DNA of 64,000 bases, taken from IMG/VR virus record IMGVR_UViG_3300031418_000003. One strand, written 5' to 3'. The notes beneath the pieces are model-generated. The model saw nothing but the letters and a program-made list of their open reading frames with translations, made no database searches and was not told the DNA's origin. Positions within the stretch are counted from its first letter, which is position 1. Every line of letters begins with the position of its first letter. This DNA comes from a virus (lineage: Duplodnaviria; Caudoviricetes). Both the position numbers and the translations under genes were made by a program. This document shows, piece after piece, positions 51,471-54,862 of this stretch.

Positions 51471-52160
51471 TTATTTGGCGGCGTCGTCGACTTTATAGTT
51501 ATAGACCTGAACAATGGCGTTGGTCAGTGCTTGTGCTTTTTCTGCCCAGGCTTTGTACGCTTTCACGGCTTTCTCATAAGGGGCGTGCGATTCACCTGAT
51601 TTACGAGGTAGTGCCTTGGCGCAGTGGCTTTCAAAATCACTGCTGACTTTGGTGACCGCATCCAGTAAGGCGTTCATCCCGGCCATGACGTCCATTGGGG
51701 ATTTACCTTCAGCCATCGAGGCGATCGCTTTGTCAGCCTTGTCCGCAAACCCTTCTGCCTTAACACCCTCAGGCAGTGAACCGACAGCTGATTTCAGTGC
51801 TTCAATTTTTGGGGTACAGGTTGAGCGAAGTTTTTCACGCATGGCTTTCTTTTGCTCATCGTCACCGCTTTTGAAAATAGACGCCAATTTACCCTTGGTG
51901 GTGCGGAAGATATCGGCAAACCATTTCTTGATGGCTTCGTATAACTTTTTGATGAACTCACCAGTCTTCTGGGCACCGGCCTTCACGCTGTCAAGGAAAC
52001 CTTCTTGCCCCACATGAGCACCAAAATCGGGATTGTCCTGAGCATGGAGCTTAAGTACTGCAAACGCATAGCGTGCTTCTGGTGCGGTACGATTACCGCT
52101 ATTAATGGCTTCACAACCCGATACGATTTCTGCAAAGTGTTCTACATCTGAAAAGCTCAT
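51471..52160 (-). CDS. Displaced inner-head protein paralog
   Basis: SGCEA and VGQEG sites then FLDSVKAGAQKTGEFIKKLYEAIKKWFADIF helix. Confidence 0.7.
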   Translation of the reverse strand: MSFSDVEHFAEIVSGCEAINSGNRTAPEARYAFAVLKLHAQDNPDFGAHVGQEGFLDSVKAGAQKTGEFIKKLYEAIKKWFADIFRTTKGKLASIFKSGDDEQKKAMREKLRSTCTPKIEALKSAVGSLPEGVKAEGFADKADKAIASMAEGKSPMDVMAGMNALLDAVTKVSSDFESHCAKALPRKSGESHAPYEKAVKAYKAWAEKAQALTNAIVQVYNYKVDDAAK

Positions 52161-52254: not shown

Positions 52255-52791
52255 TTAGCGATACACGTAGGTATGCAGGTTAGTGCGCGCCTGACCGTTG
52301 AACATGGCTTCGAACTTGGTCATGTCAAACATTGTGGTGAACTGATTACGGTTACGCGCGTATTCAGACAACAGGGTCACAAACATCATGAAACGTTTGT
52401 AACGAGTCAGTTCAGTCGAGTTGACTGTACCTTCCAACACAGCGAGTGGAGAAATGATCTTGTCCCAGGCAAATTCGTTGGGATTTTGCTTGACGGTAAC
52501 CAGAAAATAATCCATCACTTCTTTCATGTTTGAGTAATCCATTTTCAGGAAATTCCAAACACTTTCCAGGAATGACTTCTGGATTTTCTGGCGTTCTTCC
52601 AGACTTCCACCGCCAATTTCCCCTCTCAGGAACTTGGTGAACTCATCAATACCATTCTGGTAGATGTGGACAGGAGAAGTTACCTGGCGTGTTTCTTGTG
52701 CCTGGGTATTCTGCTGATCGGTCTCAGCTTGGGTATCTACCGTGTTGTTACGGCGTTCAATCTTTGGAGGGTTGAAGTTGTCACCCATCAT
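52255..52791 (-). CDS. Conserved hypothetical protein
   Basis: 178 aa. Confidence 0.7.
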   Translation of the reverse strand: MMGDNFNPPKIERRNNTVDTQAETDQQNTQAQETRQVTSPVHIYQNGIDEFTKFLRGEIGGGSLEERQKIQKSFLESVWNFLKMDYSNMKEVMDYFLVTVKQNPNEFAWDKIISPLAVLEGTVNSTELTRYKRFMMFVTLLSEYARNRNQFTTMFDMTKFEAMFNGQARTNLHTYVYR

Positions 52792-53126
52792 TATTTTCCT
52801 CTTTGTGCAGCGGCGATTGCGGCTACTTCGTTTTTATCCAAGCCGGTGTCCCTGGCGGCGTCGGCAGCTGCTTTATCGGCAGACTTCTTCTTAAGAAGAG
52901 CCAACTCCTCAGCACCCCGACCGTTACCTTCCAAAAGATCGTCAAGGAGGTCAATCGGGATCTCAAGATAATCTTTAAATGGAAGGAACCTGCTGTATTC
53001 CCGTAACCCGAAGGTGTGCCCAACGTTCTTTGCAGACCAGAGATGGAATAGATCCCTTCGCTGATGATTGTAGCGGATTTGGGCGTTATCTGATTCAGAT
53101 ACATGAACCCATCCCCGCATAATCAT
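52791..53126 (-). CDS. 'T'-like ORF of a putative tail-assembly chaperone pair; its frame stays open upstream to 53327
   Basis: 111 aa from ATG 53126 (GGAG upstream); same frame as the -1 frame of the upstream gene; HTFGLREY..LP..DYLEIP motif. Confidence 0.6.
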   Translation of the reverse strand: MIMRGWVHVSESDNAQIRYNHQRRDLFHLWSAKNVGHTFGLREYSRFLPFKDYLEIPIDLLDDLLEGNGRGAEELALLKKKSADKAAADAARDTGLDKNEVAAIAAAQRGK

Positions 53127-53239
53127 GGCAACTCTCCGATCGATGATTTTGCGTTTAAGAGCGTCCCGTTCATTAGCGTGTTCGATAAAATAGCTTATTG
53201 CTTTATCAACTAAATCCGGGGACAGGTCTCTCTCATCTA

Positions 53240-54862
53240 TTAGGAAAGATTTTCCTCGATGGTGTTCGATGTTTCTTCCCTGATACCAATCATCATTCGG
53301 GTACGGTCGAAAAAATTCATAACCGGATCAATTGGAGTAAACCCTTTGATCAGTTCATGGTCTTCGCCGTCTGCTTCCTTTTTGCACGATGGACACGCGT
53401 CATTCGGAATACCTACAAAGGTATACGTCATGCGAGGAATCACTGTAACCAGACGTTTGAGGGTATCGACGTAGAGATCTTCATCGTCGTTAAAGATATC
53501 CAGCAGTCCTTCTTCAAAGCTGCGAGGATCATCATCACGGGCAATGACTTCAACTTCGCCCTCTTTACCCGGTTCTGGATCATACTCAATAGAACCAATC
53601 CACTGAGTATACTCGCTGCCACGAATCCCGGACATGTACTCTTTGCGTTTCTCTTTAAAGTCACGCTGATTCGGGAACTCAATGGCCAGCTCACGCAAGT
53701 CCGGGTTAATGCGGTCACGCATGGCAGCGTAGGTTTCAAAGTACTCGTTCAGCGTAGGCACTTCAATGTTCATCCGACCCACACCTGGGATAGGAATAAC
53801 GTTATCGAGTGCCTTGCCTTCAGGATCATTATAGACTGGACGCCATTTGGCCAATTCCTCACGAGAAAGCTTACGGGCTTTGTTAACAACTTCGTAGAGA
53901 ACTTCACGGCGATCAGCTGGCATGTCTTCTTCGATATCCAGAATCATTGTGGTAGGATCCACAACCTGAATCTCGTTATGTTGGCATTTGTTTGCCACGC
54001 AGTACATGCGGAAACTCACACCCTTCGGTGCAGTGATGCACAACAGGCTCATCACGATAGGGTTAATATCGTTGGCCAGGATATACTCTTTCAGTTCGTA
54101 GACATCAGCGACGTCTTTGACACTATGGTAATCCAGGCGGTCCAGTACAAAGTCAACCAACAGTTCCGCAATACCTGCACGTTCTAACTGAAGTGAATTG
54201 ACATTGAAACGTTCACCGTAAGTCTGTAACCGAGTTGCAATGGTGTTGATCAAACGAATCAGATCCGGTGCAGTTGGAATCACCACGCGCATCAAGATCA
54301 TGGAGTTTAACAGAATAATGTTAAACTTATCCGGCTCACCGCGACCACCACGCAAGTTACGACGCATACGGTCACGTACCGACAGTTCACTGTTACGCTG
54401 TGGGATGATTGGATGGACTGTGCCAATACGGCTACCGTCTTTACCAGGAACAGTGTTACTGAGGTTATCGCGATTCAGTAATTCCAGGTTTTCATCACGC
54501 AGTAACAACCGGTCGGCGGTGCGCATAATAAAGGTCATGTAGTTGACCAACATCGGAACCAGATCAGCTTCTTCCATTTCTGGGAAGTTCTCGGCTACCA
54601 GTTCGTCAAACTTCACCTTCAATGCTTTTGCATCACGGGCAGGGGCACGTTCATTGACTTGTTCAGCCAGTGCTTCCTGCAGCGCAGTATACGTCATTGC
54701 CGTTTTATAGATAGCGCGGTGAACGTCACCGACTTTACCGACGAACAAAGGAATAGCGGAAGGGTCGTAATTCTCCATCTTACGAATTACGGCATCACGC
54801 AATACTTTTATTGCGGTTTCCTTTTCGATTCCTTTCTCAAGTTCACTCTTTTCTTCAGACAT
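53240..54862 (-). CDS. Putative tail/baseplate-hub assembly chaperone (T4 gp26/gp51-like or 'G'-like)
   Basis: 540 aa; Cys clusters YCVANKCQH and ACPSC; IEVPTLNEY; NFF near the C-terminus encoded by a slippery heptamer. Confidence 0.55.
   Translation of the reverse strand: MSEEKSELEKGIEKETAIKVLRDAVIRKMENYDPSAIPLFVGKVGDVHRAIYKTAMTYTALQEALAEQVNERAPARDAKALKVKFDELVAENFPEMEEADLVPMLVNYMTFIMRTADRLLLRDENLELLNRDNLSNTVPGKDGSRIGTVHPIIPQRNSELSVRDRMRRNLRGGRGEPDKFNIILLNSMILMRVVIPTAPDLIRLINTIATRLQTYGERFNVNSLQLERAGIAELLVDFVLDRLDYHSVKDVADVYELKEYILANDINPIVMSLLCITAPKGVSFRMYCVANKCQHNEIQVVDPTTMILDIEEDMPADRREVLYEVVNKARKLSREELAKWRPVYNDPEGKALDNVIPIPGVGRMNIEVPTLNEYFETYAAMRDRINPDLRELAIEFPNQRDFKEKRKEYMSGIRGSEYTQWIGSIEYDPEPGKEGEVEVIARDDDPRSFEEGLLDIFNDDEDLYVDTLKRLVTVIPRMTYTFVGIPNDACPSCKKEADGEDHELIKGFTPIDPVMNFFDRTRMMIGIREETSNTIEENLS
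53309..53315 (-). promoter_or_regulatory. Candidate -1 ribosomal frameshift site U_UUU_UUC
   Basis: In-frame X_XXY_YYZ heptamer; the -1 frame opens after TGA at 53330-53328 and runs 172 codons past the site to the stop at 52791. Confidence 0.65.

Follow-up and report, generated by a model that had tools for sequence, protein, structure and literature searches.

The locus described here lies on the minus strand of a 64,000-nucleotide (nt) stretch of DNA (hereafter the window) taken from IMG/VR virus record IMGVR_UViG_3300031418_000003 (Duplodnaviria; Caudoviricetes), a complete record of 266,753 bp bearing terminal repeats. The window carries a gene for a 540-amino acid (aa) protein, followed after an apparent intergenic gap by a small open reading frame (ORF), and a candidate site for −1 frameshifting is located near the 3′ end of the first gene (Table 1). 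The 540-aa protein is homologous to phiKZ gp077, PhiPA3 gp074, 201phi2-1 gp136, EL gp047, Goslar gp081 and AH04 gp95. This group of homologues, referred to below as the gp77 family, represents a core protein of the Chimalliviridae. Erwinia phage AH04 is the closest isolate at the locus (73% nucleotide identity). The label gp77 also has other uses in the literature, namely for Goslar gp77, which is a capsid decorator, and PhiPA3 gp77, which is a subunit of the virion RNA polymerase (vRNAP).

At the candidate site, the minus strand reads ...GTT ATG AAT TTT TTC GAC CGT..., with UUU (F517) in the P-site and UUC (F518) in the A-site, a pair that is able to re-pair as UUU UUU in the −1 frame. After F518, the 0 frame continues for 22 codons and ends at a TAA (53242–53240). 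The −1 frame starts CGA CCG, and its translation after a slip gives a predicted fusion of 518 + 172 = 690 aa with the junction peptide ...VMNFF-RPYPNDDWYQGR. The small ORF called downstream corresponds to the C-terminal two thirds of this extension, and its ATG, 61 codons past the slip site, is the first ATG, GTG or TTG of the −1 frame in the window. An initial annotation of this DNA had proposed a −1 frameshift at this heptamer leading to a 690-aa product, and its figures for the heptamer, the stop, the −1 frame and the length of the fusion all held when the sequence and translations were rechecked.

Table 1 Features of the candidate frameshift locus (positions within the window).
Feature	Position	Strand	Basis or remark
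0-frame gene, 540-aa short form	53240..54862	-	ORF and translation; phrog_4585 at E 1.4e-94
Slippery heptamer U_UUU_UUC	53309..53315	-	X_XXY_YYZ phase on residues F517-F518
−1-frame extension, 172 codons and stop	52791..53309	-	C-terminal part of the predicted 690-aa long form
Dual-coding overlap (predicted)	53240..53309	-	Short form: last 22 codons and stop; extension: first 23 codons
Apparent 113-nt 'intergenic gap'	53127..53239	-	Putatively coding in the −1 frame, without a start codon of its own
Small ORF of gene callers, 111 aa from ATG 53126	52791..53126	-	phrog_19747
TGA located 12 nt upstream of the heptamer, closing the −1 frame	53328..53330	-	
Hairpin-like element GGAAA AUC UUUCC	53243..53255	-	Immediately ahead of the 0-frame stop; ~55 nt 3′ of the site
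Invariant Cys codons C288, C293, C490, C493	53999-54001, 53984-53986, 53393-53395, 53384-53386	-	

To compare the junction among close relatives, we assembled a clade set of 26 non-identical sequences spanning 35–85% protein identity. This included the window, 15 annotated phage loci and 10 metagenomic or IMG/VR loci; a pattern scan of IMG/VR gave five loci, two of which were OBP and pEt-SU. Both the heptamer and the open −1 frame, whose conservation the initial annotation had put forward as a check, were kept in 26/26 sequences. The TTTTTT run was invariant throughout, forming T_TTT_TTC in 25 sequences and T_TTT_TTA in one, and the 0-frame stop was located at +67 (nt after the first −1 codon) in every case. 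No ATG, GTG or TTG occurred in the −1 frame before +81 in any of the 26 sequences, and none occurred before +183 in the window. In the relatives, the −1 frame was closed by a stop located 21–93 nt ahead of the first −1 codon, and no start codon occurred between the two. Across the 26 sequences, the region from +69 to +183 contained no stops in the −1 frame in comparison to 58 and 110 in the other two frames. Codon-position entropy in this start-less stretch was 1.48/1.23/1.77, highest at the third position, which is the pattern of a coding sequence.

Homology searches placed the beginning of the conserved product at the slip site. Using the −1 product as query, tblastn identified matches in 33 phage records, all of which begin at query residue 1 and overlap the end of the upstream gene by ~67 nt. 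R1, P2, P4, R18, G19, F22 and L23 were invariant in the alignment of the extension, and the segment RP.PNDD...RG.SFL was among its most conserved parts. The start assigned to the downstream gene by database annotators varied from +96 to +306 among the relatives, as expected if no real start codon exists there.

Constraint on synonymous positions was highest in the overlap between the two frames. Synonymous codon identity was 0.70–0.76 in the overlap versus 0.39–0.63 along the rest of the gene, as expected where both frames are read, and nucleotide entropy was low at all three codon positions. A 45-nt block within the overlap was identical to AH04 despite the overall identity of 73%. Elsewhere in the clade genes, the ratio of TTC to TTT for Phe was 343:202 and that of AAC to AAT for Asn was 476:199, and all other FF dipeptides (9/9) were written TTCTTC; the slip site uses the disfavoured TTT and AAT. 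The 22-residue tail of the short form was itself conserved, ending E-E-x-L-S. Contigs from four sequencing runs of four studies contained the T6 run without indels, and the run is therefore not an assembly error.

Further observations concern the same stretch of DNA. Positions 53283–53320 form a 38-nt unitig common to co-occurring relatives, on both sides of which contigs from plant and food metagenomes break. No other DNA of the locus is conserved to this degree, and depth showed a spike here, up to ~1000 versus ~60–90. An SD-like (Shine–Dalgarno-like) AGAGGA was conserved in the clade ~8–14 nt before the 0-frame stop. Together with the fixed 67-nt spacing, it could reflect a mere dual-coding constraint or, alternatively, a pause or queue element at termination. 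Likewise, conservation of the hairpin-like element listed in Table 1 may be a by-product of dual coding (E-E-x-L-S / R-G-x-S-F-L).

We expanded the comparison to 12 more junctions from distinct genera. This included Vibrio phage Aphrodite1, Klebsiella phage Miami, Erwinia phage RisingSun, an EL-like phage, Shewanella phage FishSpeaker, PhiPA3, phiKZ, SPN3US, Goslar, Ea35-70, RSL2 and Halocynthia phage JM-2012. All 12 possessed a T6–T8 run on the same two Phe codons, 14–25 codons before the stop, and in all 12 the −1 frame contained the downstream gene and was without a stop as far back as the T-run. The heptamer U_UUU_UUN was in phase in 11/12, with PhiPA3 having G_UUU_UUU. The site and the start-less open −1 frame were thus conserved in the DNA of 38/38 relatives (26 clade and 12 other genera), and judging from these comparisons such conservation is not due to chance. 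In phiKZ (NC_004629, 71442–71903), ORF 076.4 is annotated as 80 aa and begins 219 nt after gp077; these 219 nt contain no stop in the −1 frame, which is open as far back as a T7 run in gp077.

We further investigated the gp77 family with a hidden Markov model search of 1.84 billion representatives, which identified 741 clusters at E ≤ 1e−3. Among the 150 of these that were listed, homology stops near the C-terminus. The FF dipeptide was kept in 84/91 diverse homologues sampled from the 150, all ending 8–39 residues after FF, and the close clusters were all 527–559 aa in length (49/49). Neither the 49 close clusters nor the 150 listed of the 741 contained a fused single-ORF homologue, and the fact that the two frames were never merged into one ORF is an argument that the phages need the short as well as the long product. 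In one EL-like record, Pseudomonas phage HHBS8_1 (PQ287644.1, 42322–44042), the gp77-family gene is present in two pieces annotated as two hypothetical proteins. The gene was not split in seven other EL-like records, and the split in HHBS8_1 is probably an assembly indel or a real indel within the gene body.

On the strength of this comparative evidence, we consider it likely that programmed −1 ribosomal frameshifting yields two proteins from the gene. The majority of ribosomes would read through U_UUU_UUC and stop 22 codons on, giving the 540-aa short form. A fraction would slip one base back, the two tRNA-Phe re-pairing from UUU-UUC to UUU-UUU, and would continue with CGA CCG... across the 'gap' and the small downstream ORF, giving the 690-aa long form. 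This form would carry a proline-rich linker and an alpha-helical domain (~150 residues) in place of the last 22 residues. The ribosomal nature of the slip, its efficiency and the roles of the two forms are what we infer beyond the conservation itself. In E. coli, U_UU.U_UU.C and U_UU.U_UU.U count as efficient −1 motifs, both giving >0.1% frameshifting without a stimulator, and U_UU.U_UU.C is used by some insertion sequence (IS) elements (PMC4066793).

Published proteomics of Goslar, matched to annotated ORFs only, bears on both parts of the predicted fusion. Liquid chromatography–tandem mass spectrometry of virions detected gp081 with 24 peptides and an estimated 15–35 copies, similar to the vRNAP subunit gp078, and gp082 with one peptide and ~one seventh of the mass-normalised signal of gp081 (10.64898/2026.04.21.720040, Table S4). 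This shows that both parts are made as protein, at a ratio that fits a minor fusion. Neither gp081 nor gp082 is present in the 28-protein cryogenic electron microscopy (cryo-EM) model of Goslar, and gp081 may be internal to the particle or ejected from it, or may be a contaminant.

Several observations weigh against a ribosomal shift into a 690-aa protein. No conserved stimulatory RNA structure was found 5–9 nt downstream of the site using RNAalifold and minimum free energy z-scores, and nothing SD-like was found upstream of it. The z-scores for the 70 nt past the site were mostly positive, and RNAalifold (21 sequences) returned only four pairs (−1.5 kcal/mol) without compensatory change. Stimulatory elements are common, not obligatory, at −1 frameshift sites; with none here, a modest shift rate is expected and the long form would be a minor species, and the efficiency of frameshifting may be low. 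In the window, GGAG is located 7 nt ahead of ATG 53126 (the SD-like CGATCGGAGAGT is present in the window and in few relatives), and it is possible that this pair yields a separate 111-aa product in the window phage. Furthermore, alignment of the clade extension profile with the −1 ORFs of phiKZ and PhiPA3 (hhalign) was not significant, and homology of the extension domains between the phiKZ group and the window clade is only putative. Finally, the Goslar preparation also holds chimallin and PhuZ (10.64898/2026.04.21.720040), and detection is therefore no proof of virion membership; nor does it prove the fusion, and the long form is still a predicted product.

The same 690-aa fusion would also arise through transcriptional slippage, with a phage or host RNA polymerase (RNAP) adding one U at the T-run. 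Homopolymer runs are avoided in E. coli genes, partly because of slippage (PMC4066793). The slip site is homopolymeric, the T7 or T8 runs of other lineages suit slippage by RNAP, and the failure to see a stimulatory RNA structure for a ribosomal shift at the locus counts in the same direction. However, the run was strictly T6 in 26/26 clade sequences, and the exact X_XXY_YYZ phase was kept in 37/38 relatives (26 clade and 11/12 other genera). Bacterial-type RNAPs usually need runs of 8–9 for efficient slippage, and T6 is short. The strict T6 and the exact phasing within the clade thus favour the ribosome, and transcriptional slippage, although the main rival reading, is regarded as unlikely. 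The sole RNA-labelled run containing this stretch consists of contigs, probably of DNA, in which T6 occurred with no indels; it is uninformative on transcriptional slippage.

Two ordinary genes, the second initiated only at ATG 53126 with the −1 frame upstream of it left untranslated, are what every database record annotates, and a plausible SD (GGAG, 7-nt spacer) precedes that ATG. However, the 61 codons upstream of the ATG were protein-conserved from exactly the slip site onwards and stop-free in 26/26, and their counterpart contained no start codon before +81 in any clade relative. The SD/ATG pair was not conserved either, with annotated starts ranging from +96 to +306. Internal initiation, even if additional, therefore cannot explain these conserved start-less codons, which makes two separate genes very improbable. 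An artefact or decay, either a homopolymer sequencing error splitting one 690-aa gene or a recent pseudogene, could be suspected as homopolymers are error-prone and the HHBS8_1 gene is in two pieces, but we attach next to no weight to it given the same frame relation in 38/38 independently sequenced isolates and metagenomes, the absence of indels in the four runs and of a fused homologue among the 49 close clusters and the 150 listed of 741, and the conservation of the short form's own 22-residue tail.

With ribosomal frameshifting as the preferred reading, the predicted structures of its two products were considered. In the AF2 model of the short form, which is a confident one (predicted local distance difference test (pLDDT) 78, predicted template modelling score 0.79), the slip at residue 518 cuts the terminal helix formed by residues 513–539. 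The extension was modelled as all-alpha (pLDDT 68.6) with its first ~25 residues disordered in isolation, and this RPYPNDDW...RG.SFL start was highly conserved though disordered when folded alone. The predicted complex of body residues 130–518 and the extension scored 0.13, below the mark, and is no evidence either way. Within the body, D265, C288, C293, C490 and C493 were invariant in the 91 diverse homologues (~18% mean identity). The cysteines form a CxxxxC ... CPxC pattern, 200 residues apart, and such a Cys4 arrangement is probably a structural zinc site joining two distant parts of the chain.

Database comparisons gave little further indication of function. The body had no Pfam match and its PHROG matches were to families of unknown function. 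For the extension, a sub-threshold Pfam match to the RsmI_C helix–turn–helix (E 0.045) was disregarded. A sequence search of the PDB with the 540-aa protein returned only spurious matches to designed pentatricopeptide repeat proteins, and one with the extension returned no matches. In the fold comparisons, Foldseek gave no PDB match at E ≤ 0.001, and the matches of the wide VIA-align comparison with the PDB were only generic helical hairpins (body, Z ≤ 7.6; extension, Z < 5).

The gene neighbourhood was conserved. Here and in all relatives, the locus is accompanied by genes for a beta′ subunit of the virion RNAP, a structural protein of the virion and DNA polymerase, together with small conserved ORFs and an internal-head-protein-like gene. 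A 178-aa ORF (52255–52791, phrog_14374) directly follows the frameshift locus in all relatives, its ATG overlapping the stop (TAATG). Two genes downstream, a 229-aa ORF (51471–52160, minus strand) matched phiKZ_IP (PF12699, internal head protein) at E 1.4e−6.

The initial annotation had also likened the protein to hub chaperones of the T4 gp26/gp51 type. Using Foldseek against BFVD, the matches following the Chimalliviridae homologues were models of T4-like 'baseplate hub subunit / hub assembly protein', covering residues ~150–520 (E 3e−3 to 6e−2, template modelling score (TM) by target ~0.5; rows 20–47, E 3e−3 to 0.4, TM 0.4–0.56). In addition, an ESM-Atlas cluster partly carrying PF12322 matched at TM 0.44, and 'baseplate protein' rows of AFDB at E 0.17. 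Both T4 gp26 and T4 gp51 match PF12322 (T4_baseplate). This family was not matched by the 540-aa protein or 45 close homologues, and one of the 91 diverse homologues reached E 1.1e−3. A search of the phage's own genome with PF12322 gave no match, which says little since control genomes were likewise silent. Comparison with T4 gp26 and gp51 by hhalign gave probabilities of 1.5–42% over the CPxC motif only, single-sequence targets having low power. We know of no solved gp26 or gp51 structure.

Thus, the proposed likeness persists as a weak similarity in fold (BFVD, Atlas), not as a PF12322 match, and hhalign extends it to the CPxC motif only. As in the gp77-family protein, the CPxC motif of T4 gp26/gp51 is found near the C-terminus, and T4 gene 26 is likewise annotated with two products, 26 and 26′. 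However, the second product of gene 26 arises by internal initiation, not frameshifting, and the gp77-family protein is twice the size of T4 gp26/gp51. Kinship with gp26/gp51, as suggested by these models, is a weak lead and not a finding. Our best guess is that the protein is a putative factor in morphogenesis, or one associated with the virion, with a distant likeness to the hub-assembly family of T4 gp26/gp51.

The same annotation interpreted the fusion as a tail-assembly chaperone of the G/GT type. The −1 frameshift to 690 aa is strongly upheld family-wide by the comparative evidence, and the tail-assembly chaperone label is not. Lambda G is ~100–150 aa and encoded between the tube and tape-measure genes. 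In comparison, the body of the gp77-family protein is 518 aa, and in every relative its locus is found between virion-RNAP/virion-protein genes and DNA polymerase rather than beside tube or tape-measure genes. No Pfam or PHROG tail-chaperone family matched the gp77-family protein. We therefore rejected the G/GT assignment on the size of the body, the position of the locus and the lack of a family match. There are similarities nevertheless: in lambda G/GT, P2 E/E+E′ and Mu, a −1 frameshift is likewise conserved close to where the upstream ORF ends, and in the lambda G/GT type the downstream ORF likewise has no start of its own at the overlap, is made only as a fusion and presumably gives two products in a fixed ratio.

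A further reading, which we regard as doubtful, is that the locus is the Chimalliviridae counterpart of a tail or hub assembly-chaperone frameshift. There, the helical domain would tether a gp26/gp51-like module to a partner such as the tape-measure/needle protein or the tube, at a fixed low ratio. If true, nucleus-forming jumbo phages would retain the G/GT logic of long-tailed phages at a different location, fused and much enlarged. Equally open is the alternative that the protein is packaged in the virion and connected with the virion-RNAP genes next to it, its two isoforms having different fates.

Other recoding systems also provide parallels to the site. In T7 gene 10A/10B, ribosomes slip into the −1 frame at G_GUU_UUC close to where the capsid gene ends, as cited in a review on recoding (PMC5009743). 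Like the gp77-family site, it has a U-rich heptamer read by tRNA-Phe, located a few codons from the stop in a phage gene of considerable size, with a minor C-terminally extended isoform alongside a major short one and no obvious stem-loop nearby. T7 10A/10B belongs to a different protein family. The predicted gp77-family extension is also much longer (172 aa, with a helical domain annotated as a separate gene), and its site is conserved over the whole virus family, unlike that of T7. IS3/IS911 OrfA-OrfAB and E. coli dnaX tau/gamma are likewise cases of −1 programmed ribosomal frameshifting (PRF) by bacterial ribosomes on homopolymeric heptamers. However, these sites are clearly stimulated, by an SD upstream and by a hairpin or pseudoknot downstream, whereas no stimulator was found at the gp77-family site.

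The frameshift was marked in none of the 27 phage records whose annotation across the junction was read. The suspicion that it had not been reported for the Chimalliviridae was borne out, as no description was found in 8.4 million full texts, a search that covered literature other than subscription-only papers. The accessible portion of the recoding review cited above (PMC5009743) makes no mention of phiKZ or jumbo phages. We therefore present the locus as a probable case of deeply conserved −1 recoding that is new to the searchable literature.

Jumbo phages that form a nucleus (phiKZ, PhiPA3, 201phi2-1, Goslar, SPN3US) are models under intensive study and are also considered for phage therapy, and a gene-by-gene catalogue of their core genome already exists. 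If the frameshift is real, one core gene pair would be mis-annotated in every record examined, and a core protein of ~690 aa would be missing from proteome databases and thus invisible to mass spectrometry searches and to the assignment of cryo-EM density. Knock-outs of, or transposon hits in, the 'small downstream gene' would truncate the long form. The locus would also add a deeply conserved, stimulator-poor frameshift on a U-run to the small set of PRF cases on bacterial ribosomes, and would offer a clean system for asking whether phage-modified ribosomes or phage RNAPs tune recoding.

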